Shown here piece after piece: positions 10,480 through 33,966 of a DNA stretch of 56,805 bases (its first letter is position 1; each line of letters opens with the position of its first letter). Origin of the DNA: a virus (taxonomy: Duplodnaviria; Caudoviricetes). Made by a program: the position numbers and the translations under genes. The notes beneath the pieces are model-generated. The model made no database searches and had not been told where the DNA came from. It worked only from the letters and a program-made list of their open reading frames with translations. The stretch is taken from the IMG/VR virus record IMGVR_UViG_3300011432_000003, positions 1 to 56,805 of that record; one strand, written 5' to 3'.

Positions 10480-10785
10480 TACGCCTGCGCGACGCTCCCG
10501 AACGGCTTCCTCGTCGGCTCCCGCTTCACGTCCGCGGCGACGCTCACCGATGCGCAGGACGCGATCCGGAAAGTCCTCGCCGCCGCCTTCCCGCATTGCC
10601 GCATCTTGTCGCCGCGCGATGCGTGGACGTCCGACGTCGTCCTCGTCGAGTGCTTCCGCTCCCGCTCGACGTGGGGCGTGAGTCGCGCCGGCGGCGAGTT
10701 TGAGACGTGGGCCGTCGAGCTGCGGCCGCAAGGCGGCGTGATCCCGGTCCGCACGAGCAGCGACAACACGCTCGGGGGATTCTGA
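10477..10785 (+). CDS. Hypothetical protein
   Basis: Start at the cassette ATG (MYACATLPNG...). Confidence 0.7.
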   Translation: MYACATLPNGFLVGSRFTSAATLTDAQDAIRKVLAAAFPHCRILSPRDAWTSDVVLVECFRSRSTWGVSRAGGEFETWAVELRPQGGVIPVRTSSDNTLGGF

Positions 10786-10787
10786 CG

Positions 10788-11588
10788 ATGACGACGATCA
10801 CCGCAGAGAAGAGATGGACGGAGCGCCTCGAGCGATGGGTCACGCCGCGCGACGTCTTCCGGCCTGACGGCTTCGCCGTCGACGTCCTGCGCGATCGGGA
10901 CGCGAAGGCCTTCGTCACGCGCGAGCACTATTCCGGGACGTATCCGGCCGCGCGCTGCGCGATCGGCCTCTTCCTCGAGAAGTCCCTCGTCGGCGTCGCC
11001 GTCTTCTCGGTGCCGGCGAACGCGCGCGTCCTGCCGCACTACTTCGGCGAGGACGTCAACGCCGCGGAGCTCGGGCGCTTCGTGTGCGCGCCGTGCGTCG
11101 GGTACAATGGGGAATCATGGTTTCTCGCGCGCGCCTTCCGCGCGCTGCGGGAAGTGAAGCAGATCGTCGGCGTCCTCTCGTATGCGGATCCGCTCGAGCG
11201 CACGACGGCCGACGGTGAGATCGCGAAGCGGGCGCATTGGGGGACGATCTATCAGGCGAGTAATGCACGGTACGTCGGCCGCGCGGAGCCGCGGACGCTG
11301 CTCGTCACCGCGGACGGCCGAGTGATCTCGCCGCGCGCCTTGTCGAAGATCCGCAATGATGAACGCGGCGCACGGTACGCGGCCGCGCAGCTCGAGGCCT
11401 TCGGAGCGCCGGCCCGTGCCTTCGGTGAAGAGCCGGCGGCGTGGGTAACGCGCGTCTCGAGCGGCTTCCGTAAGATCCGGCATCCGGGGAATCTCGCGTA
11501 CGTTTTCGGCCTCACGCCGGCGATCCGCACGTCGATTGACGTGCAATGGGGCGCCGGGCAACCCTACCCAAAAGCGAAGGCAGCATGA
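10788..11588 (+). CDS. mom: Mom-family (GNAT-fold) DNA adenine modification protein
   Basis: Motifs FVTREHYS, ELGRF, NGESWFLA, SYADP, HWGTIYQASNARYVG match phage Mu Mom-like proteins. Confidence 0.75.
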   Translation: MTTITAEKRWTERLERWVTPRDVFRPDGFAVDVLRDRDAKAFVTREHYSGTYPAARCAIGLFLEKSLVGVAVFSVPANARVLPHYFGEDVNAAELGRFVCAPCVGYNGESWFLARAFRALREVKQIVGVLSYADPLERTTADGEIAKRAHWGTIYQASNARYVGRAEPRTLLVTADGRVISPRALSKIRNDERGARYAAAQLEAFGAPARAFGEEPAAWVTRVSSGFRKIRHPGNLAYVFGLTPAIRTSIDVQWGAGQPYPKAKAA

Positions 11589-15298: not shown

Positions 15299-16768
15299 AT
15301 GACACAAGAGACGCACACGACGACGGCCGTCGAGACGCCGCTCGATCCCGCACTCGAGATCTCGAGCGTGCCGAATGAGTCGGCGATGCCGGTCCCGGTG
15401 AAGCCGCCGGCGCCGAACGGCGATGCACTCCCGCCGGAGCTCCCGCCGCACGAAGCGGCCGAGCAGGCGGATCTCAACCGATGGACGCCGGCGCAGATCC
15501 AACTCCTGAAGGACACCGTTTGCCGCGGCGCGACGGATGACGAGCTGCGGCTCTTTCTCTACGTGTGCCAGCGGCGCCGCTTGGATCCGTTCACGAAGCA
15601 GATACACGCGATCAAGCGCCGGGTAAAAGAGGGCTCACGCTGGCGCGACTCGATCACGTTTCAAACCGGGATCGATGCCTTCCGGCTCGTCGCCGATCGG
15701 ACCGGGAAGTATCTCGGGCAAGCGCCGTTTGAGTGGTGCGGTGAGGATGGCGTATGGCGTGACGTGTGGCTTTCGAAGGACGCACCGAAGGCCGCGCGCT
15801 GCACGATCTATCGCGAGGGATTCCGGGAGCCGATCCGGGCCGTCGCGCTCTTCGACGAGTACGTGCAGACGGTCGACGAGTACAAGCGACAAGAGCAGGC
15901 GCCGGGCGAATTCGCCGACGTCAAGACGGGCCGCGAGGTTCCTAACGCGATGTGGACGCAGCGGCCGGCCGGGCAGCTCGCGAAGTGCGCGGAAGCGCTC
16001 GGCTTTCGAATGGCCTTCCCGGAAGAGCTCTCCGGGCTCTACACAAATGACGAGATGGGACAAGCGGATAATCCGTCGAAAGGCGCGCAGCGCGTCGGCG
16101 TCGATAGCGGGCAAGGCGATAGCATGAATGGGCGCGCCGGCGGCGAGACGCCGAGCTGCCCGAAGTGCGGCGGCGAGATGTGGGACAACCGCGAGAAAAA
16201 GCGCAGTCAAAAGGGATGGGCGACGGCGCCGGACTTCCGGTGCAAGAATAAGAACGGCTGCACCGGCGAGATCGCCGACATAGCAAACCCTCAACGGCCG
16301 GCGGAGCAGACAGCGAACGGGCCGAGCTCCGCCGGCTCGGCCGCTCCGCGATCCGACGCGCCGACAAGCGGCAGCGCGAGCAGCTCGAGCTCGGGCCGCG
16401 CGGCGTCGACGCCGGACACGAGGCCGACGTCGGAGAAGTCTCCCGGCTCTTCGACGAATTCCGCGAGCAGCGGCTCCGGATCCTCGAGCGCGACGGATAC
16501 GATCCCGACGTCGACGATCACGCGTGACGCGGTGATCGATTGGGGGCTCGGGAAGTTTTCCGTCGTGCAGGGGAAGCGGATCAAAGATCTCCGATGGGAG
16601 CAGCTCGACTACTTCATCCGCAATCGGCCGAGCGTGCTCCCGGCGGGATGGCTCGAGGCGATCGCGAAAGAGAAGGCGCTGCGCGAAGAGACGGGCGGCG
16701 ATGAGCGCGACGAGGACGACGGCGGCAGCATGCAAGGCGGCGATCCGTACACCGGCGCCGGCGCATGA
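15299..16768 (+). CDS. bet: Bet/RecT-family single-strand annealing recombinase with C-terminal Zn ribbon
   Basis: TDDELRLFLYVCQRRRLDPFTKQIH, TGIDAFRLVADRTGKY, WTQRPAGQLAKCAEALGFRMAFP, GLYTNDEM; alternative start 15140. Confidence 0.9.
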   Translation: MTQETHTTTAVETPLDPALEISSVPNESAMPVPVKPPAPNGDALPPELPPHEAAEQADLNRWTPAQIQLLKDTVCRGATDDELRLFLYVCQRRRLDPFTKQIHAIKRRVKEGSRWRDSITFQTGIDAFRLVADRTGKYLGQAPFEWCGEDGVWRDVWLSKDAPKAARCTIYREGFREPIRAVALFDEYVQTVDEYKRQEQAPGEFADVKTGREVPNAMWTQRPAGQLAKCAEALGFRMAFPEELSGLYTNDEMGQADNPSKGAQRVGVDSGQGDSMNGRAGGETPSCPKCGGEMWDNREKKRSQKGWATAPDFRCKNKNGCTGEIADIANPQRPAEQTANGPSSAGSAAPRSDAPTSGSASSSSSGRAASTPDTRPTSEKSPGSSTNSASSGSGSSSATDTIPTSTITRDAVIDWGLGKFSVVQGKRIKDLRWEQLDYFIRNRPSVLPAGWLEAIAKEKALREETGGDERDEDDGGSMQGGDPYTGAGA

Positions 16769-18690
16769 CGAAGACGCTCAAGATCTCGGCCGACTTCGCG
16801 CTGCCGTACGATGCGCAGACGCGCACCTTCGTTGTCTACGGCGGCAAGGGCAAAGGGAAGAGCAATCTCGGCGCCGTTATGTGCGAGGAATTCGCCGACG
16901 CCGGCCTGAAGTTCTGCGTCATCGATCCATTAGACGTCTTTTGGGGACTCCGGCACGGGAAGACGAAAGACGAGCAGGGGATCGACGTCGTCCTGCTCGG
17001 CGGCACGCACGGCGACTTAGCGATCGAGCCCGGCGCCGGCGCGACGGCGGCCGATTTCGTCGTCGACGAGACGGCGAGCGTGATAATCGTCATGCGCCGC
17101 GGAAACGGGGAGATGTGGACGAATGGCGAGCGGATCCGCTTTATGCGCGACTTCGCGACGCGCGTCTTTCAGCGGCAGGGGGAAGCGCGGCAGCCGTTGC
17201 ACTTGGTCGTCGACGAGGCCGGGCGCTTCGTGCCGCAGATGCCGGCAAAGAATGATCTCGCGATCGCCGAGTGCATCGGGGCGATCGAGCAGCTCGTCGA
17301 GTGGGGCCGGAATTTCGGGATCGGCGTCACGCTCATTACGCAGCGCTCCGCGCGGATGAATAAGAGCGTTAGTGAGCTGGCCGAGTGCATGGTCGCTTTC
17401 CAGACGGCCGGGCCGCGCTCGATCGGCGCCGTCGTCGACTGGTTCGGTGAGCACGTGCCGAAGGAACGGCAGCACGAGCTCGTCGGGATCCTGCGGAAGC
17501 TGCCCGTCGGCCGGGCGCTCATCGTGTCGCCGGAGTTTCTCGACTTCGAAGGCGAGGCGCAGATCCGGCACCGGCGCACCTTCGACTCGAGCGCGACACC
17601 GAAGGCCGGCGCGAAGCCGGCGAAGCCGGGCGGCCGGCGCGCGATCGATCTCGAGGCGTATCGCGTGAAGCTCGGCGAGACGATCGCGAAGGCCGAAGCG
17701 CAGGATCCGCGGGCGCTCATGAAGCGGATCCGGGATCTCGAGCAGCAACTCACGAAGCGGCTCGAGACGGCGAAGGCCGTCGCGGATCCGAAGGCGATCG
17801 AGCGAGCGGTCGCGGCGCTCGAGAAGACGCACGCGATCGCGCTCGGCCAGCTCCGGAAGCGCGTCGACGACGTGATCCGGAAGGCGACGCACGGCTTCGC
17901 GAGCCTGCAGGCGGCCGTCGAGAAGGCGAACGAAGCGGCGAAGCTCTTCGGCGAGGCCTTCCGGCATCAGCTCGAGAGCGTCCTCGAGGATCCGATATGG
18001 ACCGGGACGCCACGGCCGAGCGTGGACGATCACGCCGGCGACGGGTACGCCGCGCATGCGAGGATCGCGCAGGCCGTGCCATTCGCGCGGAAGGTAGCGC
18101 AGGCCTCACCGCTCACCGATGCGGCCGCACGCGCCGTCGTGGCTCGAGCGCGTCCCGATTCCGCGGTCGCAGAGAACGGGAACGGCAAAGGCCTGCCGAT
18201 CGGGATCCGGCACGTCGCGATCTTGAACGCCTTACTCGAGCTCGAGCAGCTCGGCGTCGGCGAGCCGTCCCGGATACAGCTCGGCGCCTTCGCCGGGCGC
18301 AACCTGACGGGCGGCACGGGCGGGATGGACGTCGCGGCGCTCGTCGAGGCCGGCCTCGCGCGGATCCCGTCGGCCGGGAAGGTCGCGATCACACGGGCCG
18401 GCGAGGCGCAGGCGTCACGGATCGAGGATCCGCTCACCCTCGAGGACGTGCACGCACGGGCTCGGGCACGCGTCCCGGAGCGCCTGCGGCCGATCCTCGA
18501 GCGGCTGCTCGAGATCTGGCCGGAGTCGGTTACACGGACGCAGCTCGGCGAGGTCGTCGGCCGGAACCTCACCGGCGGGACCGGCGGGATGGACGTCGCG
18601 GCCTTAGTGGCGCTCGGCTTCGCCGAGATCCCGCGGAGCGGGCACGTCGCCGCCGGCGGGATCCTCTTCCCGGAAAGTCTGCGGTCGTGA
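16765..18690 (+). CDS. HerA/FtsK-superfamily (DUF87-like) ATPase with two C-terminal winged-helix-like repeats
   Basis: Walker A GGKGKGKS, VIDP, Walker B LVVDEA, GRNFGIGVTLITQR; coiled coil; duplicated GRNLTGGTGGMDVAALV. Confidence 0.85.
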   Translation: MTKTLKISADFALPYDAQTRTFVVYGGKGKGKSNLGAVMCEEFADAGLKFCVIDPLDVFWGLRHGKTKDEQGIDVVLLGGTHGDLAIEPGAGATAADFVVDETASVIIVMRRGNGEMWTNGERIRFMRDFATRVFQRQGEARQPLHLVVDEAGRFVPQMPAKNDLAIAECIGAIEQLVEWGRNFGIGVTLITQRSARMNKSVSELAECMVAFQTAGPRSIGAVVDWFGEHVPKERQHELVGILRKLPVGRALIVSPEFLDFEGEAQIRHRRTFDSSATPKAGAKPAKPGGRRAIDLEAYRVKLGETIAKAEAQDPRALMKRIRDLEQQLTKRLETAKAVADPKAIERAVAALEKTHAIALGQLRKRVDDVIRKATHGFASLQAAVEKANEAAKLFGEAFRHQLESVLEDPIWTGTPRPSVDDHAGDGYAAHARIAQAVPFARKVAQASPLTDAAARAVVARARPDSAVAENGNGKGLPIGIRHVAILNALLELEQLGVGEPSRIQLGAFAGRNLTGGTGGMDVAALVEAGLARIPSAGKVAITRAGEAQASRIEDPLTLEDVHARARARVPERLRPILERLLEIWPESVTRTQLGEVVGRNLTGGTGGMDVAALVALGFAEIPRSGHVAAGGILFPESLRS

Positions 18691-18757: not shown

Positions 18758-19345
18758 ACGCAGCCGACGACCGAAAAAGCTCCCGCGATCCATCCCTTCG
18801 AAGAGTCAGGGCTCGGCGTCGGGCCGTTCCGCTGCGTCGGCGTCGAGACGCGCGTCGGACCGATCACGCTCGCCGACGGGACGCAAGTCGGCTCGCCGGG
18901 GCAGCCGATGGGCTCGTGCGCGCATTGCGGGACCGGGATTAAGGATTGCTATCTCATCCGCAGCGCAGACGGGAAGCGCTTTGTCGTCGGCTCGTCGTGC
19001 GTCCTCAAGACGAATCGGAAGAGCCTCGACACGCGCGGAATGTCGGAGCTCGAGCGCGACGTCCTGCGCGAGAAGCGGGCACTCGATCGCGAGAAGGCCG
19101 CGGCGAAGCGCGACGCGAAGTACCTCGCCGATCTGGCGAAGTTCAAGCCGTCATGGGACGCCGCGCGCGCCGCGCTCGAGGCCGATCCGACGCTCTGCGC
19201 CGGCGAGCCGCATCCGCAGATCTCGGGCCTGACGCTCCGGAATAAATACGAGTGGATGCTGCAGCATGCCGGCTTCGCCGGTCGGAACGCGACGGCGGCG
19301 TGCATCCTGCGCGCGGCCGCGGCGAAGGCCGGAGTCGCCGAGTGA
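18755..19345 (+). CDS. Hypothetical Zn-binding protein
   Basis: HPFE...GSCAHCGTGIK...FVVGSSCV; start at the cassette ATG. Confidence 0.75.
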   Translation: MTQPTTEKAPAIHPFEESGLGVGPFRCVGVETRVGPITLADGTQVGSPGQPMGSCAHCGTGIKDCYLIRSADGKRFVVGSSCVLKTNRKSLDTRGMSELERDVLREKRALDREKAAAKRDAKYLADLAKFKPSWDAARAALEADPTLCAGEPHPQISGLTLRNKYEWMLQHAGFAGRNATAACILRAAAAKAGVAE

Positions 19346-19539
19346 AGCCGCTCCCGCAATGGGCGCGCGTGCAGCAGCGCGCGCTCGAGACGGCGACGCT
19401 CTGCGCGACGTGCGGGAAAAAGACGCTCGTCGCGAACGTGTCGCCGCTGCGCGTGCGGCCGACGCTCGAGCCGGTGACGGCGGCGACGCACTGCACGTGT
19501 CCCGGCGGCCCGGCCGCGGAGATCTCGCATGTTCGGTGA
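19342..19539 (+). CDS. Small Cys-containing hypothetical protein
   Basis: GTGA overlap; CATC...CTC. Confidence 0.5.
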   Translation: MKPLPQWARVQQRALETATLCATCGKKTLVANVSPLRVRPTLEPVTAATHCTCPGGPAAEISHVR

Positions 19540-19882
19540 GCCCGGCGGGATCCGCGCGATCATGGTCGCACTCGTGCTCGAGGATGGCCGGCAGGTATGG
19601 ATCGCCGGCCGGTGCTCGCCGGAGTATTCCGACTGCACGATCGGTTTCGAGCGCGACGTCGTTCCCATATGGGACAAGCCATTCGGGCCGCCGATCGGGC
19701 ACTTCGTCCGCGATCTGACTTTCAAGATCGAAGGCCGTTTTCCCGGCTTCGTCGGCGGCGAGACGTGGAAGGAAGGCACGCCGGATCCGGACGCGCTGCG
19801 CACCGTCGCCGGCGATCTCCCGGAGCCGCCGAAGCAGATCGCGGCCGGGCCGATCGCCGTCATCGAGGCGCCGAAAGAATGA
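19529..19882 (+). CDS. Hypothetical protein
   Basis: GGAG RBS; typical codon usage. Confidence 0.65.
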   Translation: MFGEPGGIRAIMVALVLEDGRQVWIAGRCSPEYSDCTIGFERDVVPIWDKPFGPPIGHFVRDLTFKIEGRFPGFVGGETWKEGTPDPDALRTVAGDLPEPPKQIAAGPIAVIEAPKE

Positions 19883-20037
19883 CGACGCTCGCCGCGGTGT
19901 CTCTGTATCTCGCGATCGTCGCCGGCGTCGGGACGGGTCGTGCGCGCGTGCATTCGCCGGCATGGTGGATCGCGATCGTCTTGTGCGTCGGCTTCTGCCG
20001 GATCTTCGTCGAGCTCTTACTCCGGATCCCTCGATGA
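19879..20037 (+). CDS. Small 2-TM membrane protein
   Basis: Two hydrophobic segments; ATGA overlaps at both ends. Confidence 0.6.
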   Translation: MTTLAAVSLYLAIVAGVGTGRARVHSPAWWIAIVLCVGFCRIFVELLLRIPR

Positions 20038-20546
20038 GCCGGCATCCGCACGCCGGCGAGAAACGGAAGCCGACGCTCGAGCGGCAACTCGAGGGGACGG
20101 GGCTCTTCGGCGGATTGCCAGAGCCGGGCAGCGACGCCGAGCTGCGGGAAGCCGCGCGCGCTCTCGCGCTCCCGATCGAGGACGTGCGCGTACTCCGGGA
20201 CGGCGTCGACATAGCACCGGGGCCGCAGCGGCTCGGCCGCCGCGCGATCGCGCAGGACGTCGCGCTCGGGAAGGCGCTCATCGTCAAAGGGACGAAGATC
20301 GAGCAGATCCTTGCGTTTCTACGCAAGGACTATAAACTCGGATGCACGCGGGAGCAGATCGCGAAAGCGCTCGGCTTCAAGCTGCAAACCGTTTGCGGGC
20401 GCGTAAACGATCTGCTCTATCGGAAAGCTGCAGGCCTGCCGGCGCCGCTCGTGTATGAGCGCGGCGAAGATTCGACCGGGGCCGCTTATGTGTACGCATT
20501 CACGCCGGAAGCTCTCTCACTCTCTCGACTCACGGACACAAAATGA
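20034..20546 (+). CDS. Winged helix-turn-helix DNA-binding protein
   Basis: GCTREQIAKALGFKLQTVCGRVNDL. Confidence 0.7.
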   Translation: MSRHPHAGEKRKPTLERQLEGTGLFGGLPEPGSDAELREAARALALPIEDVRVLRDGVDIAPGPQRLGRRAIAQDVALGKALIVKGTKIEQILAFLRKDYKLGCTREQIAKALGFKLQTVCGRVNDLLYRKAAGLPAPLVYERGEDSTGAAYVYAFTPEALSLSRLTDTK

Positions 20547-20950
20547 AGACACAGATCCTCGCCGCGCTCGTCACCGATTCGCCAGAGGCGGCGACACTCG
20601 GCCTCGAGGCCGCCGAGCTCTCGATCGAGCAACTCCTGCAGGCGGAGCCGATCGCCGATCGCATGCTCGCGGAAGTCCGGACGGCGATCGGGACGAAGCT
20701 CCGCGATGAGCGCGCCGCGCTCGGGCTCTCGCTCGAGGAAGTGCGCGACAAGTCGGGCCGCTCGATTGACTCCGGCGGCCTCTCGCGGCTCGAGCGCGGG
20801 CAGTCATGGAGCGGCGAGCTTGCCGGCACGGCGCGCAAGTTCTACGCGCGCGAGCGCGCCAAGCAGGCGAAGGCCGACGCACGGAAGCAGGCGAAGGCAG
20901 CGGCATCGTATGCCGTCGTCACCGAAGGACGCCGCAGAGCCGGCGCGTGA
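20543..20950 (+). CDS. XRE/Cro-family HTH regulator
   Basis: IGTKLRDERAALGLSLEEV...LSRLERG. Confidence 0.75.
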   Translation: MKTQILAALVTDSPEAATLGLEAAELSIEQLLQAEPIADRMLAEVRTAIGTKLRDERAALGLSLEEVRDKSGRSIDSGGLSRLERGQSWSGELAGTARKFYARERAKQAKADARKQAKAAASYAVVTEGRRRAGA

Positions 20951-21366
20951 GATCGTCGCGGAAGCAGCTCGATCCGGAGCTCGAGGCGCTCAAGGCGTAC
21001 GGGAAGCACGTCCGCGCGTGGATCGATAAAGACGAGCCGCGGCGGCTCGAGCTGCTCAAGGCGCAGTGCGAGCGCTTCGGGATCGCGCTCCGGCAGCTCT
21101 CGCCGCACTCGTGGCGCCTCACGCTCGGCGAGACGTGGTGCGACTACTTCCCGCGGCGCCGGACCGTCACACACGGGAACGAACGCGTCGGCGACGGGCT
21201 CGCGGCCGCGCTCGAGTATCTCGGGATCCCGAAGCGCGACGCCGTCCGGCTCGAGCCGCGGCGACGTGGACAACGTGTGTGGACAACCGACGTGGACAAT
21301 ACGGCCGGAGATTCCACACGGGATCCCACATTGCCCAATGTGGAACGGAAAGCGCCGCCGGCGTGA
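20947..21366 (+). CDS. Hypothetical protein whose 3' end overlaps the putative origin
   Basis: GTGA overlap; HSWRL...CDYFP; the last ~35 codons run over DnaA-box-like repeats. Confidence 0.6.
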   Translation: MRSSRKQLDPELEALKAYGKHVRAWIDKDEPRRLELLKAQCERFGIALRQLSPHSWRLTLGETWCDYFPRRRTVTHGNERVGDGLAAALEYLGIPKRDAVRLEPRRRGQRVWTTDVDNTAGDSTRDPTLPNVERKAPPA

Positions 21367-21440
21367 CGGTTAGCTCGGTTCTGCACGTTTCAACACGTCT
21401 CTACTGTTACTGATTCTGTAAGTCTTTAGTCCTACTATCA
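21265..21440. other. Putative oriC-like replication origin (DnaA boxes, DnaA-trios, AT-rich tract)
   Basis: YGTGGACAA at 21265, 21278 and 21291 (reverse complement of TTGTCCACA/G, 13-bp period); tandem TTCTGCACG/GTTTCAACA at 21379-21395; CTA CTG TTA CTG ATT CTG at 21401-21418; among the lowest-GC tracts of the genome. Confidence 0.6.
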
Positions 21441-21461
21441 GAACCCGCTCACGAGGGGAGA

Positions 21462-21887
21462 ATGCCAGCAACGAAAGCAAAGCCGAAGGCTCGCGCGGCT
21501 CGCGCGAAGCGCTTCGCAGAGTACATGCTCGAGAATTTCCGGAACGCATTCGCCGAGCTGCGCGCGATCTCCGGGCAGATCTCGCAACTCGGGCACATGG
21601 TCGAAGGGCTCAAGGCACGGATCCCGGACACGCTCGCGAAGACGAATCGATTCGGCGAGCCGATTCGTGTCACGTCGTGGAAGATCGCGCGGCCGCTTAC
21701 GGTGCCGATGTACAATCCCGACGCCGATCGGGATCGGCAGCTCACGGAGCCGGCCGAGCTGGCCGTCGTGCTCTTTGAGCTCGTCGCACGAGCGGACACA
21801 CTCGGGGCGACGAATCGAATCGCGAGCGTCACCTTCGACGAGCGCGAGGGGAAGCTCGAGCTCTACGCGCGGGAGCGCCTCACGTGA
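21462..21887 (+). CDS. Hypothetical protein
   Basis: GAGGGGAG RBS. Confidence 0.7.
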   Translation: MPATKAKPKARAARAKRFAEYMLENFRNAFAELRAISGQISQLGHMVEGLKARIPDTLAKTNRFGEPIRVTSWKIARPLTVPMYNPDADRDRQLTEPAELAVVLFELVARADTLGATNRIASVTFDEREGKLELYARERLT

Positions 21888-22066
21888 GCGCCGAAACATT
21901 CGCGCGCGGCGCGTACGCCGTCGCCGCGATCGCCTTCGTGCTCGCGGTCGTCGTCTTCATGCTGCAGTCGCATCTCCGGTATCGCGCGGCCCGGCGCCGG
22001 CACGAAGAGCAGTATCGGCGCGTCCTCGCGTCGATCCGGAGCACGCTCGAGAACCTCGAGCGGTGA
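21884..22066 (+). CDS. Small membrane protein
   Basis: One TM followed by a basic tail; overlaps at both ends. Confidence 0.6.
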   Translation: MSAETFARGAYAVAAIAFVLAVVVFMLQSHLRYRAARRRHEEQYRRVLASIRSTLENLER

Positions 22067-22356
22067 CGACGCTCTGCGCGACGTGTCCGCTCAATCGGGA
22101 TCCGACGCAACCGCTCTCCGGGCGGCAGGCGCAGCTCTTGCGCTTTCTCGGCCAGTATCACCGGCGCTCGGGCATCATGCCGGCGTATTCCGAGATCGCC
22201 GAAGCGCTCGGCGTCCGCTCGCTCGCGAGTGTATCGGAGCTCGTCGGGACGCTCGAGGGGAAGGGATGGATCTCCCGCCGGCATAACGTCGCGCGCTCGA
22301 TCACGCTCACCGCGGCCGCGGTCGAATGGGTCGCACAGTACGGAGACGCGGCATGA
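22063..22356 (+). CDS. LexA N-terminal DNA-binding-domain-only protein
   Basis: LSGRQAQLLRFL...GIMPAYSEIAEALGVRSLASVSELVGTLEGKGWISR...ARSI; no peptidase domain. Confidence 0.85.
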   Translation: MTTLCATCPLNRDPTQPLSGRQAQLLRFLGQYHRRSGIMPAYSEIAEALGVRSLASVSELVGTLEGKGWISRRHNVARSITLTAAAVEWVAQYGDAA

Positions 22357-22649
22357 TGAGCGCGGCCGATCTATGTCCGAAGTGCGGCGGGCAGCGGATG
22401 CGACAAGCCGGGTGGATGCTCTGCGCTTGTCCCGGTCCCGGTATTCGTGAAGCGGGCATGCTCGCCGAAGCCGAGAACGTGCTCCGGCTCTCCGGCGACG
22501 GATTGCTGCTCGCCGAGCTGCTCCGCGACGGCGCCGAGATCACGATTTATCGGGACAAAAGCATCGGGATTAACCGGCTCGACGGCTCGACGGTGCCGTT
22601 TAGCGATGACGTCGATCGGCACGCGATCGCGAGGATCCTCTGCCGATGA
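22353..22649 (+). CDS. Hypothetical protein with N-terminal Zn ribbon
   Basis: CPKCGG...CAC. Confidence 0.6.
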   Translation: MMSAADLCPKCGGQRMRQAGWMLCACPGPGIREAGMLAEAENVLRLSGDGLLLAELLRDGAEITIYRDKSIGINRLDGSTVPFSDDVDRHAIARILCR

Positions 22650-22927
22650 TCCCGCCGGAGCTCGCGCATCTCAACCCGGCGAACGTCCGGGAATTCCTGC
22701 CGCTCGTCGAGCAGTACAAGCGCCGCGGATACACGGCCGCTGCCTGCGCGAATGCGATCGTCAGGCCTTGGTCGCAGCAGGCGACGCGAGACGCGAAGGC
22801 CGGGCTCCGGCCGGCAATCCTCATCGAGCAGGATCTCGCGAAGGCCTGCGCGATGCTCGGCGACATTATTCACACGGTGTACCGGACACGTGTCCTCTTT
22901 ACCAATCACGGGAGCGTACTCTCATGA
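22646..22927 (+). CDS. Hypothetical protein
   Basis: ATGA overlaps. Confidence 0.55.
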   Translation: MIPPELAHLNPANVREFLPLVEQYKRRGYTAAACANAIVRPWSQQATRDAKAGLRPAILIEQDLAKACAMLGDIIHTVYRTRVLFTNHGSVLS

Positions 22928-23151
22928 CTTTGCTAACCTCACCGCAGCTCGGGCCGATCCTCTTCGTGATCCTCGTCTTCGTCGGGATCGGCGTCTTCAC
23001 CCTCGCACGTTCGCTCATCCTCGCCGGCGCCTGCGTTTACGAATATCGCCAGCACAAGCGCCGCGGCGGCCGGCTCACGTTCCGCGGCTTCCTCGAGGCC
23101 TTCGGCGTGCGGAACATGCTCGAGCGGCACGAGTGGATCCGGCCGCAATGA
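22924..23151 (+). CDS. Small membrane protein
   Basis: TM ILFVILVFVGIGVFTLA. Confidence 0.6.
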   Translation: MTLLTSPQLGPILFVILVFVGIGVFTLARSLILAGACVYEYRQHKRRGGRLTFRGFLEAFGVRNMLERHEWIRPQ

Positions 23152-23648
23152 TCGACGCCGTGAGTATGTCGGCGATCGTCTTCGTCGTGCTCGTCGGCCT
23201 CTCCGCGATCGGCGCGCTCACGGTCACGCATCGGCTCCGCGATTGGGTCGAGGCACGCCTCGATCCCGATCGCCTGCACTGCGGGTATCACGAGGCACTC
23301 GAGCGGATTCGTGAGGCGATCGGGCTCCCGCCGCGGATCGCGCACTCGACGATCGCCGACGAGGCGATCCGGATCATCCGGGAGCCGATCCTCTCGCTCG
23401 CGGCGGATCCGTACAAGGCCGAAGCCGTCGACGTGCTCGAGATCTCGTATGACGTTCGGGCATTGTGGGGCCGGTGCGATGTGTGCGGCGCCGGGCACGG
23501 TATGCAGTGTCGGAACGTGATCGACGCCGGCCTTTTCCGGGAAGGTGATCGAGGCGTTTCGGCGGCCGCGCATTTTGGCCGGCTCGCGAAGGCGCCGCTC
23601 TCGGTCCGTCTCGAGTGGTCACGTGCGAGGCTCGCCGGCAAGGCATAG
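23148..23648 (+). CDS. Membrane-anchored protein with C-terminal phage Zn finger
   Basis: N-terminal TM; [12 protein letters not shown]...HFGR. Confidence 0.6.
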
Positions 23649-23706
23649 ATTCCGCGGCGAGGCCGGAAGCCGGCCGACACACACACTTGCTCGAGGATCG
23701 TCCGCA

Positions 23707-23916
23707 ATGGCTCGCGAGTCTGGCATCGTGAAGTGGTTCAACGATCAAAAAGGGTTCGGCTTTATCACGCGCGACAATGGCGGGAAGGACGTTTTCGTAC
23801 ATCAGACGGCGATCAAAGCCGACGGATTCCGCACCCTCTCGGAAGGCGAGCGCGTGACGTTCGACGTCGAGAACGCGGAGAAGGGACCGGCGGCGAAAGA
23901 CGTCGAGAAGTCATAA
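23707..23916 (+). CDS. cspA: Cold-shock protein (CSD)
   Basis: [15 protein letters not shown] (RNP1), DVFVH (RNP2), KGPAAKDV; GAGGA RBS. Confidence 0.97.
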
Positions 23917-23983
23917 ATCGATCGATCCCGCCGGCCGGGGGGCCGGCGTGGGTCGTCGCTCTCACTCTCACGGACCTATCACG

Positions 23984-24418
23984 ATGACGGCAGCCGGGAC
24001 GCTTTCGATCTCACTCAATCGTCGCGAGGGCGAATGCATCGCGTGCGGCGCCGCCGTTACGGATCCGCGGCAAGGGCTGCCGATGCGCGACGGCGAGATC
24101 GTCGATCTCGAGGATAACGGCGAGTGGGGCGGCTTCCATGCGTGCCGCGATTGTTATAACGCATACATCGTCGCCGGTCCGGCCGGCGTCCGGATTCGCC
24201 TGCAGGCGATCGCCGGTGCCGCGGATCGGTTCGAGGTCGTCGGGCCTGACGGTCAAGTTGAGTGGGACAGTGAGGCCGCATATCGCAACTCGCCAGAGAT
24301 GAGCAGCGCGGAGCGGGCGGCCGTCGCCGTGAAGATCGCGACCGTCGGCGTCGGCGGCATTGGCCGAGACGTCCGCCGCTCGATTGTGATCCGGTCCTCG
24401 CTCCATCTCTCCCGATGA
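23984..24418 (+). CDS. Hypothetical Zn-binding protein
   Basis: CIAC...ACRDC; CTCTCACTCTCAC leader. Confidence 0.65.
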   Translation: MTAAGTLSISLNRREGECIACGAAVTDPRQGLPMRDGEIVDLEDNGEWGGFHACRDCYNAYIVAGPAGVRIRLQAIAGAADRFEVVGPDGQVEWDSEAAYRNSPEMSSAERAAVAVKIATVGVGGIGRDVRRSIVIRSSLHLSR

Positions 24419-25666: not shown

Positions 25667-26380
25667 ATGCAGCGCGCGCTCCGCATGCGGAAAAGCGATT
25701 TCGAGCGCGCCGTCGCGCTCTCGCGGAATGGGGATACGGCCGGCGCGCTCGAGGCGATGGCGCCGAAGCGGAAACGGGCCGCCGCGGCCGCCGGCGCCGA
25801 GCGGAAGGGACAACGGGCGGACCAAGCGGGAAAGGCCTTTCAGAAGGCAATCCGCGAGACGCTCGAGCTCGAGGCGAAGGCCGGCCGCTGCGTCTTCATC
25901 GAAGGGAATCCGCGCGTCGGCGGCGCGCCGGGCGGCATGTTCCCGATCGAGGCGACGCGCGTCGACTTTCAGGTACTCGCCGGCGGGATCTCGATCGCGT
26001 TTGACTGTAAGGCCGTGTCCGGGATGGCCGAGTTTTCCGTCCGGAATTACGTCGGGACGCCGAAGGCGATCGAGAAGCTCGAGCGGCAGATCCGGTACTT
26101 ACTCGACTTCCGGAAGCAGGGGGGAATCGCCTTCCTCTTGCTGCAGGAAGAGAAGCACGCGCGCGCGTGGCTCTGCTTTCAGCTCAAGACGTTACTCGAC
26201 GGCGGCAGCGTCCCGATCCGGACGCTCGAGCGGGAGCGCGGCGGCATCCCGGCCCGTGTCGTCGATCATCTCCCGGTCATCGTCGAGTCACCGCGACTCG
26301 TCGGGCCGAGCTGGCCGATCCTCGACGCCGCACGTACGCACGGGACAAAGACGATCCCGCTCGCCGGCGAGCCGTCATGA
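25667..26380 (+). CDS. recU: RecU-family Holliday junction resolvase
   Basis: VDF...ISIAFDCK...RQIRYLLDFRKQGGIAFLL. Confidence 0.75.
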   Translation: MQRALRMRKSDFERAVALSRNGDTAGALEAMAPKRKRAAAAAGAERKGQRADQAGKAFQKAIRETLELEAKAGRCVFIEGNPRVGGAPGGMFPIEATRVDFQVLAGGISIAFDCKAVSGMAEFSVRNYVGTPKAIEKLERQIRYLLDFRKQGGIAFLLLQEEKHARAWLCFQLKTLLDGGSVPIRTLERERGGIPARVVDHLPVIVESPRLVGPSWPILDAARTHGTKTIPLAGEPS

Positions 26381-27324
26381 AGTCCGCGCTCGTCATCCTC
26401 GCGTCCGGGATCGGGAATGTCATCCGATGGACGCCGATCGTCCCGATCCTCGTCGAGCGCGGATACATCGTCGACGTGTGGATCGTGGCGCCGGATTATC
26501 CCGAAGTGGCCTCGCTGCTCGAGCCGTCGCCGATGATCCGGCGCGTCATGATCTCGGGACTCCTGACGAAAGCGGAAGCGCCGCCGGACGCGTACGATCT
26601 GGCGATCGTCACGCGATGGGTTCCGCCGTTCATTCTCGAGCAGATCCTCGCCGTCGAGCGGCTCGAGGCGCCGGCCGAGTTTTGGCTGCAGCACGGGGAC
26701 CGGGGCGCCGTCGTGTGGACGGCGACGCAGCTCGGGTATATCAACCCGATTCCGAAGCCATTCGTTCACGCCTCGAGCCGGCGCTTCGGCCTCGAGCCGA
26801 GTACGATCGCGATCCATGCCGGCCGGAAGGCGGGATGGGATCAAAAGCAGTGGCACGGCTTCGGCGAGCTGCTCCGGTATTTCGAGCGCTTCGTCCTCAT
26901 CGGCGCCGGCGAAGATTGGACGGGGCACGAGCTCGGCGACTACGCGCGGCATCTCGCGCGCGGCCGCGACTACGTCGGGCAGCTCACGCTCCGGGATACG
27001 GCGGCGCTGCTCACCGAATGCGTCGGCGTCGTGACGATCGACTCGGGGATTTCGCATATCGCCGCAGCGCTCGGGATTGCGACGTTCCCGATCTACGGGA
27101 TCACGCGCGCGCGGCGCGAGGCGTTCGCCTTGCCGAACGTGTACCCGATCGAGAACCGGGCCGCCTGCGCGCCGAGCTGCGCGACGATCCGGTACAATGC
27201 GCGCACGTGTCCCGGCGGCCTCGCCTGCTTGTCGACGCTCACCGCGGAGACGGTCGCGGCGAAGGTCCGGAGCGTCCTCATGCTCGAGGCGCCGGCGGAC
27301 GCACCGGCGGCGGCTGCGGAATGA
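26377..27324 (+). CDS. Glycosyltransferase family 9 (ADP-heptose transferase-like)
   Basis: GIGNVI..TP, KQW, GQLTLRDTAALL, IDSGISHIAAALG, C-terminal Cys cluster. Confidence 0.85.
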   Translation: MKSALVILASGIGNVIRWTPIVPILVERGYIVDVWIVAPDYPEVASLLEPSPMIRRVMISGLLTKAEAPPDAYDLAIVTRWVPPFILEQILAVERLEAPAEFWLQHGDRGAVVWTATQLGYINPIPKPFVHASSRRFGLEPSTIAIHAGRKAGWDQKQWHGFGELLRYFERFVLIGAGEDWTGHELGDYARHLARGRDYVGQLTLRDTAALLTECVGVVTIDSGISHIAAALGIATFPIYGITRARREAFALPNVYPIENRAACAPSCATIRYNARTCPGGLACLSTLTAETVAAKVRSVLMLEAPADAPAAAAE

Positions 27325-27575
27325 TACGCGTCACCGTGGAGCTCATTAGCGCGATCAGTCCGGACCGGAATCGGGTGCTCGGAATCGCGGAGATCGCGAA
27401 CGAATCCGGCGACGAGCTGCATGCAGACTATAGCGTTCGGTTATCGAAGTGGGCGCCGAAGACGGGGGAGACGTGGAAGCGCGGCGAGGTCCGCGGCTTC
27501 GATAAAGTGCATCGGGGCGCGTGGGATCTCTTGTATCTGGCGCTGCGGGCATGCGTCGGAGATCGGAACCGATGA
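27321..27575 (+). CDS. Conserved-looking phage hypothetical protein
   Basis: MIRVTVEL...LGIAEIAN...DYSV...GAWDLLYLAL; ATGA overlaps. Confidence 0.7.
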   Translation: MIRVTVELISAISPDRNRVLGIAEIANESGDELHADYSVRLSKWAPKTGETWKRGEVRGFDKVHRGAWDLLYLALRACVGDRNR

Positions 27576-29422
27576 CACGGCCGCTCACGATCGCCGTCCG
27601 GCTCACCGGCGGGATGGGGGACGTCCTACTCGCGTCGCCGTTCCTCGAGCAGATGCACGAGATCCTCGAGAGCTGCGAGATCACGGCGTACTATCACTCG
27701 CCGAAGGTCGCGGAGTTTGTCCTCGCCGGCGCGCGCTTCGTGCACGCGATCCGGGACGTCGCGGATCTCAATCGGGCCGCGCTGCAGCGCGCGGATGTGC
27801 TCGTGCATACGGGACACTTTCCGCGCTATGTGCCGCAGAACCGGCGCGCGCTCGCGCTGCTCGGCGGCTCGGCGTTTCGGTTCCTCGTCGAAAGGAATCA
27901 GGCGGCGATCGCCGAGATCGAGGGATTCGTCACGCATCATCCGCGGTTAGACGGCGTATGGGCGCGCATGCTGCAGGGGAACGGGCACGCGATGAATTAC
28001 CTCGACGGGATCGGCCAGCTCTCCGGCTTCCCGATCGACCGGCACACGCGGCCGTTCCTCACCTTGGATCCGGGACACCGCGGCCCGGTATCGATCGCGC
28101 TCGAGCGCCGGCCGTATATCACCGTGCACGACGGTTTCGATAACCGGCAGGCACCGGCGGCCGGGCGCGCGTCAAAATGCTGGCCGCTCGAGCACTGGCA
28201 GGCGCTCGTCGCACTCCTGCGCGCCGCGCATCCCGACTACTTCATCGTACAGCTCGGCGCCGGGAAGAGCCGGCCGATCGCCGGCGTCGACGCGTGCCTG
28301 ATTGACAAGACGACGCTCGCGGAAACGGCATGGATCCTGAAGGACGCCGCGCTGCACGTCGATACGGACTCCGGCCTCGCGCATCTCGCGTACGCGCTGC
28401 ATACGCCGGCCGTCGTGCTCTTCGGGCCGACGCCGGCGCGCTACTTCGGGCACGATCCGAATACAAACGTCGCCGTCGGGCCGTGCTCGGATTGCTGGTG
28501 GAGTACGCCGGATTGGCTCGCAAAGTGTCCGCGCGGCCTCGCGACGCCGGCGTGCATGCAGGCGATCACGCCGGCACTCATCGAGGCCAAGGCGCGCGAC
28601 GTCCTCGCGCAGCGGGCACGCCAGACGCCAAAGTTCCGGGCCGGCGTGCTCCGATGTTACGACGGCATGAACGACGAGGCGCGCGCGATCGCCGACGTGA
28701 TCGCGATCACGTCCGGGCTCGAGCCGGGACCGATCACCGGGCATCTTGTCGACGGCGCGACGGGCGTCTATGTGCACGCGTCGAAGCAATGGGAATACGC
28801 GTACGCCGTGCGGTCGATCGTGGAGTACGCCGGAATCCGGAAGGCACCGGACGGCCTCGAGATTGCGCAATGCGCCGGCCTGAAGATCGCAGACGTCGGC
28901 GGCGGCCGCGGCGCGCTCGCGGCCTTCCTCGCCGCCGCCGGGGCGACGGTCGAGCAATTCGACCGGGATTACCAATGGGGCCGCAACGGGCACACGGAGC
29001 CGGCGTATCAGCGATGGAGCCGCTCCAAGGGATACCGGGCGCGCTTCGGCTCGATCTATAACCTGCCGGCGGCGTCGGAGTCATTCGACGTCGTCCTTTG
29101 CATCTCGGTCCTCGAGCACCTTCCCGACAAGCGCGCGGCGCTCCGCGAGCTCGTGCGCCTGCTCCGGCCCGGCGGGATCTGCGTCCTCACCTTCGATCTC
29201 GCGCTCGAGCCGGAGCGCTTCCGGGATGCCTTGCGCGTCGACGTCGCGGATCCGGACCGGCTCGCGGAATGGCTCGCCGCGATCGGGATCGAGTACGAGC
29301 TGCTCCCGAATGCACTTCCCGCGATCGTCGAGCTGAGTCAATCGCGGATCCAATTCGACGGCGTCGCCGGGATCCCGGACGGGATGACGGTCGCCGGCCT
29401 CACGATCACGCGCGTGCGATGA
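27572..29422 (+). CDS. GT9 glycosyltransferase fused to a class I SAM methyltransferase
   Basis: N-terminal GGMGDVLL, KCWPLEHW, DTDSGLAHLA, VLFGPT; C-terminal WEY, DVGGGRG, FDVVLCISVLEH, LLRPGG. Confidence 0.88.
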   Translation: MTRPLTIAVRLTGGMGDVLLASPFLEQMHEILESCEITAYYHSPKVAEFVLAGARFVHAIRDVADLNRAALQRADVLVHTGHFPRYVPQNRRALALLGGSAFRFLVERNQAAIAEIEGFVTHHPRLDGVWARMLQGNGHAMNYLDGIGQLSGFPIDRHTRPFLTLDPGHRGPVSIALERRPYITVHDGFDNRQAPAAGRASKCWPLEHWQALVALLRAAHPDYFIVQLGAGKSRPIAGVDACLIDKTTLAETAWILKDAALHVDTDSGLAHLAYALHTPAVVLFGPTPARYFGHDPNTNVAVGPCSDCWWSTPDWLAKCPRGLATPACMQAITPALIEAKARDVLAQRARQTPKFRAGVLRCYDGMNDEARAIADVIAITSGLEPGPITGHLVDGATGVYVHASKQWEYAYAVRSIVEYAGIRKAPDGLEIAQCAGLKIADVGGGRGALAAFLAAAGATVEQFDRDYQWGRNGHTEPAYQRWSRSKGYRARFGSIYNLPAASESFDVVLCISVLEHLPDKRAALRELVRLLRPGGICVLTFDLALEPERFRDALRVDVADPDRLAEWLAAIGIEYELLPNALPAIVELSQSRIQFDGVAGIPDGMTVAGLTITRVR

Positions 29423-30848: not shown

Positions 30849-31264
30849 CGCCGATAGAAGTCGTCGCGGCCGTTCGCATCTGGCATCGTCAGGTATGGAT
30901 CTGCCGGCGCCTGCACGACGGAGACAGCTCGCATAACGCGGCGAGTTTTGCCGGCTCGTGGGAGTTTCCCGGCGGCAAGGTTGAGGCTACCGACGCGACG
31001 CTCGGCGCAGCGCTAAAGCGCGAGATGCTCGAGGAATTCGATGCGCGGATCGTCGTCCGCGAGTTACTCGCCTCGATCGACGCGGATCATCTCGGCAAGC
31101 GGTATCGCGTACACTTTTTCCGGGTCGTCTTCGTGCAGACGCCGGCGCTCAAGGTTCACAGTGAAACGCGATGGATGATGCCGGAAGATGCTGCAGCGCT
31201 GCCGCATCTTCCGAGCGGTGTCGAATTTTTACGCCGGCTGCAGGCCGGGGAGATCGTCGTATGA
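30845..31264 (+). CDS. Nudix hydrolase (MutT/NudG-like)
   Basis: WEFPGGKVE...ALKREMLEE Nudix box. Confidence 0.9.
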   Translation: MTPIEVVAAVRIWHRQVWICRRLHDGDSSHNAASFAGSWEFPGGKVEATDATLGAALKREMLEEFDARIVVRELLASIDADHLGKRYRVHFFRVVFVQTPALKVHSETRWMMPEDAAALPHLPSGVEFLRRLQAGEIVV

Positions 31265-32058
31265 CGCCGCTCGTCAGTTACGCGCAGATGACGCACGTCG
31301 CACGGGCCGCCGGCGCGCAGCGCGTGCGCGAGCAGCTCGGCCGGCCGATCGACGTCCATATCGACCGGGAGAGCCGCGGCCCGTGGAGCTCCGCGCGCGC
31401 GGCGTGGGAAGCGACGCCGGGCTCGTGCCGATGGCGCGTACTCCTGCAGGACGACGTCGATCTCGCGCCGGACTTCGCCGACGCGCTCGAGTGGCTGCTC
31501 ATGGAATACGGGAGCCTACTCGCTGGCCGGCCGCTCGCTCTGTATAACGGGCTCGGGGATCAACCGGACGCCGGCGAGCATTGGATCGAGCGCCGGGACG
31601 GCGTGCAGGGGCCGGCAATCGTGCTCGGGCAGCCGGACGTCGCACCTATGCTCGAGTGGTGCGAGCGCTTCGTCCGGGATTCGCCGGCGATGACGTCGAG
31701 CGATATACGGCCGTCCCTCTGGCTCGAGGCGATGGGGCGGACGTCACTCTGCCCGTCGCCGTCGTGGCTCAATCACCGCGGGTACGAGCCGTCGCTCAAC
31801 GGGACGCGCAGCTCGAGATCGCAGCCGCGGACGGCGCCGACGTGGGATCCGCATCGCCGCCTCGCCTCGATCGATTGGACGCTCGGCCTCGCACCGCGGA
31901 TCCGTGAGCTGCGCGGCCGCCGGCTCGGGGCATCGGAGCGCGTGCGCTGGCATCTCTGGCGCACGTGGCAGCGGGAGCCCGATCACGAGCTCTATCGGCT
32001 CGGCCTCGATCCGTGGGAAGGGATGCCGCGGCACCGCGGCGGACTGGCCGGGATATGA
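31261..32058 (+). CDS. GT-A fold glycosyltransferase
   Basis: MTH..R, W..ARAAW, LLQDDV (DxD-like), PSWLNH...S. Confidence 0.65.
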   Translation: MTPLVSYAQMTHVARAAGAQRVREQLGRPIDVHIDRESRGPWSSARAAWEATPGSCRWRVLLQDDVDLAPDFADALEWLLMEYGSLLAGRPLALYNGLGDQPDAGEHWIERRDGVQGPAIVLGQPDVAPMLEWCERFVRDSPAMTSSDIRPSLWLEAMGRTSLCPSPSWLNHRGYEPSLNGTRSSRSQPRTAPTWDPHRRLASIDWTLGLAPRIRELRGRRLGASERVRWHLWRTWQREPDHELYRLGLDPWEGMPRHRGGLAGI

Positions 32059-32142: not shown

Positions 32143-32469
32143 CTAATGGCCGCGACGCCGGCGAGGATACGCCGCGCGGAAGGCGCGCCATGCCTCGCGA
32201 CGGGCCGCTTCCGTCCACACGAGCGCCGACGCCTTGAATCCGCACGCCTTCGCATCGGCGAGGATCTGCATCTGCCCGGCCAGCAGGCCGCCGACTTGCT
32301 TCCCGTCGGCACCGTGATACGTCACGGACCAATCGCCGATCATGCCGGACGTCGCGGCCATATTGCCCGGATGGAAGTCGATCACGGCCTTAACGGCCGG
32401 CGCCGAGTGGAAGCGCTTCGGATCGACGGGAGCGGATGCCGCGAGGCGGCGCGAGAGCTGCGTCTTCAT
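32143..32469 (-). CDS. Hypothetical protein
   Basis: Preceded by a half cassette CACTCTCACTCTCGAGGATCCTCACG-ATG. Confidence 0.7.
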   Translation of the reverse strand: MKTQLSRRLAASAPVDPKRFHSAPAVKAVIDFHPGNMAATSGMIGDWSVTYHGADGKQVGGLLAGQMQILADAKACGFKASALVWTEAARREAWRAFRAAYPRRRRGH

Positions 32470-32702
32470 CGTGAGGATCCTCGAGAGTGAGAGTGACGAC
32501 GGGGAATGAGGCCGAGATATTCGGCCGCTGCAGTGAGGGACCGGATCCGACGCGGGAATTCCGTCGGATCATTGCGATAGATCGTGCCGGTATCGGTGAT
32601 CTCGACGAAGTCATCGCCGCACGCGTAGATCGTCGAGAACGGCCGGCTCTCGATGGAGAGCCGGGCCGTCTTCGCGAGCTCGTCGAATTGCGCGCGGCGC
32701 AT
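32466..32702 (-). CDS. Hypothetical protein
   Basis: Tightly packed in the - strand block. Confidence 0.65.
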   Translation of the reverse strand: MRRAQFDELAKTARLSIESRPFSTIYACGDDFVEITDTGTIYRNDPTEFPRRIRSLTAAAEYLGLIPRRHSHSRGSSR

Positions 32703-32705
32703 CGG

Positions 32706-33961: not shown

Positions 33962-33966
33962 TCGCG

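Follow-up and report, generated by a model that had tools for sequence, protein, structure and literature searches.

Positions 21260-21445 of the virus record IMGVR_UViG_3300011432_000003 (Duplodnaviria; Caudoviricetes) raise the question of whether a tailed phage in which no replication initiator can be recognized starts replication at this site and, if so, what part the host initiator DnaA plays there. We analyzed the entire record, which is complete, 56,805 bp long and ~67% GC, and we refer to it as the window. According to the original prediction, the locus mimics a bacterial chromosome origin (oriC) and is fired by host DnaA alone. Our working hypothesis, which we hold tentatively and with a confidence that stops somewhat short of even, is that 21260-21445 is a replication origin, or the main replication-control site, with an input from host DnaA. 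The element would consist of three parts, i.e. six candidate protein-binding sites with a TGTGG core, a GC-rich clamp, and an unwinding element of ~65 bp.

All motifs that had been described at this locus were found in place, including the 13-bp period. The three direct repeats (21262-21299, plus strand) consist of CGTGGACAA at 21265-21273, TGTGGACAA at 21278-21286, and CGTGGACAA at 21291-21299 at an exact period of 13 bp; on the minus strand they read TTGTCCACG/A/G, and copies 1 and 3 have the 12-mer CGACGTGGACAA in common. Two weaker, opposed sites at 21310-21330, GATTCCACA (21310-21318) and GATCCCACA (21322-21330), read TGTGGAATC and TGTGGGATC on the minus strand and have 3 and 4 mismatches, respectively, to either DnaA-box consensus. 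A sixth site with a TGTGG core, TGTGGAACG at 21339-21347, had escaped the original prediction, as had the 8-2-8 inverted repeat CCACATTG-CC-CAATGTGG (21326-21343), which comprises site 5 and the sixth site and has operator-like dyad symmetry. The three weak sites have 3-4 mismatches and retain the CCACA core, and the array has sites in both orientations. Genome-wide, GTGGACAA has three matches (21266, 21279, and 21292), all of which lie in the array, versus 0.43 expected; a count of three was reached in 3 of 100 shuffles when clustering was not required. With at most one mismatch, TTGTCCACA has six matches in the genome versus 2.1 expected (1 of 100 shuffles). Because the spacers between the direct repeats differ, the array is not a recent tandem duplication, and a period of 13 bp, which does not preserve the reading frame, rules out a peptide repeat and indicates that the repetition is maintained in the DNA itself. 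We conclude that the array is a unique, non-random repeat cluster at the level of DNA. That it arose by chance or is a neutral leftover devoid of function is extremely improbable: YGTGGRM gives six sites within 100 bp versus a largest cluster of four, seen in 2 of 300 first-order Markov simulations, and chance would also have to account for the exact phasing, the non-identical spacers, and the adjoining minimum in duplex stability.

The array starts at codon 106 of a gene for a 139-aa protein of unknown function, gp20947 (20947-21366, plus strand), whose GTG start at 20947 overlaps the stop codon (TGA) of the gene before it. The conserved domain of this protein stops near residue 103 (nucleotide ~21256), and a tail of 36 codons crosses the array. 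Using the frame signal in GC at third codon positions (GC3), on which the gene calls are based, we observed that the signal is strong at 20880-21200 and fades by ~21240. Among 1.84 billion representative proteins, gp20947 has three homologues (124, 105, and 103 aa), and only its residues 1-111 align with them; in the AF2 model, residues 10-97 are ordered and the predicted local distance difference test score (pLDDT) is below 50 from residue 100 onwards. Because the conserved domain, the GC3 signal, and the ordered part of the model all give out at about the start of the array, we suggest that the array lies in functionally non-coding DNA under an unconserved ORF tail.

Beyond the sites, a GC-rich segment (21351-21378; GC 0.75) contains the palindrome CGCCGGCG at 21356-21363 and the stop codon TGA at 21364-21366. 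Next comes an AT-rich tract with a GC of 0.40 (21379-21445), which is a candidate for a DNA-unwinding element (DUE) and includes the -10-like sequence TACTAT at 21433-21438. This tract contains the lowest-GC 80-bp window of the genome (0.45) and is the genome's least stable duplex at each window size used (30, 50, and 80 nt); for the 50-mer at 21388-21437 the value is -60.8 kcal/mol versus a genome mean of -81.7 (sd 4.4), i.e. ~4.7 sd above the mean. A putative functional protein-binding array beside an unwinding element is well supported.

As to which protein binds the array, the claim that the direct repeats represent the high-GC variant of the DnaA box was borne out: the three strong sites match TTGTCCACA at 9/9, 8/9, and 8/9 positions. 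Table 1 of PMC4285127 assigns TTGTCCACA to M. tuberculosis and S. coelicolor as their high-affinity box and TTATCCACA to E. coli, B. subtilis, and Pseudomonas; moreover, the S. lividans oriC has 17 TTGTCCACA boxes, as cited in PMC3583192. The matching consensus is actinomycetotal. By our estimate, which is a judgement and not a computed value, the chance that the consensus of an arbitrary 8-mer repeat agrees so closely with a DnaA box is ~1e-4 to 1e-3. Because an arbitrary iteron would rarely match the box this well, we favor DnaA as one binder of the array.

Scanning one genome per prokaryote species for the exact triple GTGGACAA-N5-GTGGACAA-N5-GTGGACAA, we found it in 22 bacterial loci, 12 of which are labelled Actinomycetota. 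Pfam searches of the ORFs flanking eight of the 22 loci placed one (L022) between dnaA and dnaN; the neighbors of the other seven are unrelated genes. The triple of the L022 oriC lies within a run of boxes at 11-13-bp spacing; as in the phage array, sites are found in both orientations, and a tandem box pair, a short GC-rich spacer, the triplets TTA CTA CTA, and then the lowest-GC window follow one another. The phage array is thus like actinomycetotal oriC arrays (PMC4285127, PMC3583192, and L022) in having the identical 9-mer and three same-strand boxes at identical 13-bp phasing. Unlike the phage array, which has three strong and three weak sites, the L022 oriC has 13 box-like 9-mers (at most two mismatches) over ~200 bp in addition to a tandem pair beside trios; also, the phage host is probably, on a weak lead, not actinomycetotal. 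Reading other triple loci by eye, we observed that the array lies just upstream of the start of a TnpB-like gene in three loci of one metagenome-assembled genome, and upstream of an rpsF-like start in one cyanobacterial locus.

Boxes that bind host DnaA could also serve a role other than initiation, either as a DnaA sink that delays initiation in the host or, as has been suggested for the injection-stop region of phage T5, as a membrane/DnaA tether. Three good boxes are in favor of such a role and there is a proposed precedent, in that the preprint bioRxiv 10.1101/866236 proposes that eight DnaA boxes in the first-step-transfer region of T5 act in the arrest of injection and not in replication. 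The T5 region described there likewise has a cluster of DnaA boxes, some matching the consensus and some nearly so, in a non-coding part of the phage genome that is interspersed with direct and inverted repeats; unlike the situation here, where three boxes lie 4 bp apart in mid-genome beside a DUE-like tract, the T5 boxes are paired 3 bp apart in inverted repeats of the terminal repeat. Three strong sites would also have a small titration capacity, no terminal-repeat context is present, and a sink or tether leaves the position at the most meltable DNA of the genome unexplained. We consider this explanation very improbable.

Would DnaA suffice to open the tract? The search rule for the basal unwinding system (BUS; modeled on B. 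subtilis) in PMC8287927 calls for a box with at most two mismatches at 0-16 bp from at least three trios, and the layout given there has a second tandem box (at most four mismatches) at a separation of 0-3 bp. At the edge of the AT-rich tract, two weak box-like 9-mers on the plus strand (21379-21395), TTCTGCACG at 21379-21387 and GTTTCAACA at 21387-21395, are followed by the spacer CGTCT (21396-21400) and by six consecutive NTN triplets, CTA CTG TTA CTG ATT CTG (21401-21418, plus strand; complement 3'-GAT GAC AAT GAC TAA GAC-5'). This arrangement is like the BUS set out in PMC8287927 in that 9-mers in the orientation of TTATCCACA, 5 bp, six NTN triplets (read as NAN on the complementary strand), and AT-rich DNA succeed one another. 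The strand that runs 3'-to-5' from the box carries six consecutive central-A triplets where the rule calls for at least three; order and strand logic agree with the BUS of the L022 oriC, and this logic, derived from L022 and from the statement on the 5' tail in PMC8287927, matches the orientation that the original prediction assumed. The proposal of tandem boxes plus trios is supported as far as the six triplets are concerned and, by the published rule, is not supported with respect to the boxes. Each proximal 9-mer has 3 mismatches, both to TTATCCACA and to TTGTCCACA, which misses the published threshold of two; and the 9-mers, described as abutting, in fact overlap by one base at 21387, so that both are within the 4-mismatch limit but in a layout unforeseen by the published rule. 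The phage locus also differs in lacking a dnaA/dnaN context.

The NTN run is unremarkable on its own, the genome having nine runs of at least six (.T.) or (.A.) triplets versus 1.8 in simulations. A relaxed pattern, tailored post hoc as two boxes with at most three mismatches followed within 16 bp by at least five NTN triplets, occurs only here in the genome and was obtained in 1 of 60 whole-genome simulations and in 8 of 5000 simulations of local composition, a rarity that we treat as suggestive only. One could picture a stripped-down oriC look-alike opened by host DnaA alone, in which the strong boxes would serve as an anchor and the weak boxes and trio-like triplets would act at the edge of the tract. 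If this were true, a virus without an initiator, loader, primase, or polymerase of its own would start replication in the manner of the host chromosome and compete with the host origin for DnaA. We consider this quite improbable, and we do not accept the terms oriC mimic and DnaA alone because the published BUS rule yields no candidate, the good boxes lie far from the AT-rich tract and point away from it, and phage DNA-binding proteins are encoded alongside. What is supported is a repeat cluster beside a DUE-like tract, three perfect or near-perfect DnaA boxes, and the occurrence of the same triple in a genuine oriC.

Searches of 60 ORF translations with Pfam and/or PHROGs gave no match to a polymerase, primase, DnaB/DnaC, O, P, or Rep family, in agreement with the claim that the phage has no recognizable initiator or replication gene. 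The search covered ORFs outside the late block 37173-53538, from which the terminase was included by tblastn, and most ORFs had no match at all; because most ORFs are without annotation, the absence of an initiator is weak evidence. The families that were found comprise Mom-like, Gp157/Gam-like, RecT, and cold-shock proteins, two GT9-like proteins (one a methyltransferase fusion), a LexA-type winged helix, and a RecU-like resolvase that is under the Pfam cut-off and has a PHROG E-value of 4e-13. Several genes around the site encode candidate DNA-binding proteins, so that the notion of DnaA acting alone is not supported. Two candidate binders of the site lie immediately upstream on the plus strand: gp20034 (20034-20546) has a MarR-like winged-helix C-terminal domain predicted from an Atlas feature and structural look-alikes, with no Pfam or PHROG match, and gp20543 (20543-20950; 135 aa) has a weak XRE-type helix-turn-helix (HTH; Pfam HTH_3, E 0.003, 18 bits versus a cut-off of 23; phrog_3, transcriptional repressor, E 0.0018). 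Downstream, a small LexA-type winged helix is encoded at 22063-22356 (plus strand; provisional start), a candidate regulator that matches Pfam LexA_DNA_bind above cut-off (E 2e-10, 40.7 bits) and the repressor family phrog_362. Fold searches with gp20947 found no clear fold (Foldseek best E 0.27; VIA-align wide best Z 6.1, which is under the informative range), its structural look-alikes in the Atlas were unnamed viral clusters only, and a sequence search of the PDB with gp19962 and gp20947 returned nothing meaningful.

A further candidate is gp16765 (16765-18690, plus strand), a predicted HerA/FtsK-type P-loop ATPase of 641 aa whose gene lies 2.6 kb upstream of the array and directly after the Gam-like and RecT genes. 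Residues 1-290 form the ATPase, with Walker A and B motifs, and are followed by a coiled coil (296-408; ~110 residues) and two C-terminal winged helices. The AF2 model has a pLDDT of 85, Foldseek matched it to HerA (9x1m and 4d2i; E 1e-11 to 1e-10), and a profile search gave a weak match to a DtxR-type winged helix-turn-helix (wHTH; E 0.02-0.1). The family has at least 442 members, many of them on phage-sized contigs and almost all, among the rows listed, without a Pfam match; many family matches span only 51-64% of the query, and in many members the C-terminal wHTH half is far less conserved than the motor. Based on these predictions, gp16765 could be a sequence-specific DNA motor, part of a Gam/RecT recombination module, an origin factor, or a packaging-like pump. 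We know of no HerA-type initiator, and there was none among the papers listed by a full-text literature search.

These proteins bring up the main rival to our working hypothesis, namely that the repeats are phage-specific iterons bound by gp20034, gp20543, gp20947, or the wHTH domains of the ATPase, that the origin is of the kind found in lambda, Staphylococcus aureus pathogenicity islands (SaPIs), and iteron plasmids, and that the likeness to DnaA boxes is coincidental. As in iteron origins, at least three repeated sites lie beside an AT-rich unwinding element. The lambda origin lies within gene O, where repeated sites are followed by an AT-rich tract, and SaPI and plasmid iteron origins are similar; the phage locus is like them in that repeats at a gene's 3' end are followed by an AT-rich tract within an early, non-structural region. 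Four DNA-binding candidates are encoded within 1.3 kb, in addition to the ATPase with its two wHTH domains and their low conservation in many family members; the 12-mer common to two copies is longer than a DnaA box, and the 8-2-8 palindrome of sites 5 and 6 is typical of dimeric HTH proteins. Unlike those origins, the phage locus is accompanied by no detectable O-, Rep-, or RepA-like protein, its units are 9-13 bp and not ~19 bp long, and its motif is that of a DnaA box. Matches of 9/9 and twice 8/9 to a known box are improbable by chance under this explanation, and none of the adjacent proteins matches an initiator family in Pfam or PHROGs.

Relatives of the ATPase bear on the same issue. 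No relative covering the array was found by tblastn with gp20947 against phages, in IMG/VR with single-protein queries (gp20947, gp21462, and the ATPase), or in metagenomes with gp20947, and the exact triple-box pattern has 0 loci in IMG/VR. The phage collection contains one distant ATPase record, annotated 'hera helicase'. Among 26 IMG/VR and 80 metagenome loci with an ATPase relative, only L049 has neighboring genes in common with the window; its Gam-like, RecT, and ATPase genes are syntenic, and its contig ends 366 bp past the last of these. Six of the 26 IMG/VR loci bear multi-copy repeats of their own at 0.9-3.7 kb from the start of the ATPase gene (L025 4922-4993; L026 1902-1988; L029 7235-7396; L039 6607-6739; L044 9286-9376; L045 6420-6487); the repeat sequence differs in each, and the clusters are mostly in lower-GC DNA. 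The six were picked by eye after exclusion of clusters at contig ends (L030, L041, and L043) and of GC-rich clusters of a single 8-mer, and clusters of any kind were present in 18/26 loci versus 4/26 shuffled ones. These clusters may be origins or have some other role in cis, and may change in step with the variable wHTH half of the protein. Phage-specific modules of repeats plus AT-rich DNA are thus common in this loose ATPase group, which favors the iteron explanation a little; at the same time, the relatives have only the ATPase in common with the window, so that their repeats say little about the array. Taken together, we regard phage-specific iterons as rather unlikely.

The AT-rich gap is also compatible in part with control of transcription. 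In this explanation, the sites would be operators or activator sites, bound by the neighboring HTH proteins, for a promoter in the gap that drives the genes from 21462 onward. The first gene past the gap encodes a 141-aa protein (21462-21887, plus strand) preceded by the Shine-Dalgarno sequence GAGGGGAG at 21453-21460; this protein matched only itself in a search of 5.8 billion proteins and has no Pfam or PHROG match. The gap is the only sizeable non-conserved one in a tightly packed same-strand block, it has the -10-like TACTAT as well as the Shine-Dalgarno sequence, an operator-like palindrome is present, and regulator-type genes lie on the flanks. Against this, a sigma-70 consensus scan of 19800-22200 returned no promoter, with the caveat that the host promoter type may differ, and the five terminator-like hits of the accompanying scan were all on the minus strand. 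The last of the six sites ends at 21347, which leaves 60 bp or more to any plausible -35 for the -10-like sequence, so that the sites would probably not act by occlusion. Repressor operators usually recur, and the motif is found nowhere else in the genome. This explanation also leaves the stability minimum and the match to the DnaA box unexplained. We consider it distinctly unlikely. A sigma-54 reading of the gap was dropped in the absence of a GG-N10-GC motif by eye, as were readings as a LexA box, parS, or pac, for which there was no supporting feature.

Several observations weigh against a DnaA-assisted origin and have to be set beside the evidence for it. Compared with the more general box TTATCCACA, the three strong sites match at only 8/9, 7/9, and 7/9 positions. 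The strong boxes lie ~100 bp from the trios and the AT-rich tract and face away from them, and a scan of 21200-21450 with the BUS rule gave no candidate on either strand with TTATCCACA or TTGTCCACA, although the host's own box may differ. The 12-mer of copies 1 and 3 outruns the 9-bp box and, like the operator-like palindrome of sites 5 and 6, suits a phage HTH protein equally well. In the bacterial scan, 16 of the 22 loci with the exact triple are near-perfect tandem repeats of a 13-mer, and the enrichment of the triple is unquantified because no control pattern was used. A DnaA-box cluster was present in 0/26 IMG/VR loci and 0/5 whole records of ATPase relatives (none with neighboring genes in common with the window), six of these loci having other repeats instead. 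Cumulative GC skew climbs monotonically with no turning point at 21 kb and is uninformative. Finally, the cold-shock protein of the phage (23707-23916) is 69-72% identical to Gemmatimonadales/Gemmatimonadetes proteins, and four of the five organism-named rows among the 120 relatives listed carry Gemmatimonadota names. Together with the GT9-like genes, this provides a weak lead to a diderm, non-actinomycetotal host, with a hint of Gemmatimonadota; if that is correct, the match to an actinomycetotal box loses some weight.

We nevertheless favor a replication origin because it uses all of the observations, i.e. the uniqueness of the site, the array, the GC clamp, the stability minimum, and the location in a replication/recombination block. 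In the suggested mechanism, the three strong 13-bp-phased sites would be DnaA boxes that recruit host DnaA; the array would be bound by DnaA together with at least one DNA-binding protein from the neighboring phage genes; binding would strain the least-stable duplex beside the array; and this duplex would open for the helicase and replisome of the host. We infer that proteins bind here, that one of them is DnaA, and that replication starts at this site. In P1 oriR and iteron plasmids, host DnaA boxes lie beside an AT-rich region and act with a DNA-binding protein encoded by the element itself. The favored model shares with these origins DnaA boxes, an AT-rich region, and an element-encoded protein, and differs from them in having no recognizable Rep gene and no iteron family distinct from the boxes. 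By this comparison, the element appears to resemble DnaA-assisted plasmid and phage origins more than a self-sufficient copy of oriC. Among the papers listed by full-text literature searches, there was no directly comparable DnaA-dependent phage origin.

The setting of the element is consistent with a genome that is circular or circularly permuted. The record is cut within a tail-fibre/virion module (1-355 and 55619-56805), with an ORF running off the right end and a virion-protein-like ORF opening the left end; because the module is cut at both ends, we suggest that the window ends are biologically meaningless. Structural genes run from the small terminase gene (34933) to the end of the window and wrap around to a collagen-like tail fibre at 3830-5002; a non-structural block on the plus strand occupies ~5-32 kb, with the array mid-way in it, shortly after the genes for the Gam-like protein, RecT, and the HerA-like ATPase; and a block of small genes is on the minus strand at 32.1-34.5 kb. 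The window contains no tRNA genes, and an Rfam search of 20900-21900 had no match. The large terminase has below 31% identity to every match in the phage collection by tblastn, and megablast with the 5 kb at 19000-24000 had no match against phages, suggesting that the window has no close isolated phage relative. The tail protein at 50953-53538 had no tblastn match. Cold-shock relatives with 82-91% identity are present on other phage-sized contigs and, therefore, closer kin of the phage exist. A protein with 71% identity to the ATPase (P0004) is encoded on a contig of 56,630 bp, and other contigs with related proteins measure 58,311 bp (P0009 and P0131), 51,676 bp (P0127), and 18,262 bp (P0005 and P0128); a search of IMG/VR with P0009 did not bring up its 58-kb contig. 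Twenty metagenome runs from sediment or groundwater (X1-X20; 20 studies) contain the region 20500-22500, and several of them may be the source of the record; contigs from four of these (X17-X20) have 0 differing letters wherever they cover the repeat region, documenting a widespread, very uniform phage population; no RNA datasets bearing the stretch were listed.

Two further features of the window were noted. In the minus-strand block (32143-34480), at least three genes start behind the near-identical leader …CACTCTCAC(GC)TCGAGGTT…ATG, and one and the same GC-rich hairpin, GGCCTTGTGCGA.TGC.CAAGGCC, lies downstream of two genes, an organization that resembles a repeated expression cassette; the encoded proteins have no Pfam or PHROG match. 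The genes at 10707-11588, 26167-27324, 27521-29422, and 31171-32058 encode a Mom-like protein, two heptosyltransferase-like GT9 proteins, of which one is a fusion with a class I methyltransferase, and a glucosyltransferase-like protein; these proteins may modify DNA, virions, or the host envelope.

If host DnaA fires the element, the locus would clearly exemplify how a tailed phage can leave even the recognition of its origin to the host, and it would provide a compact natural substrate for defining the minimal number and geometry of boxes. If instead a phage protein binds the repeats, the site would still likely be the origin of a very poorly annotated group of sediment and soil phages, and a candidate new initiator would be among gp20034, gp20543, gp20947, and the HerA-type ATPase. 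Either way, the locus is a defined target of 200 bp on which protein binding and minireplicons can be tested.

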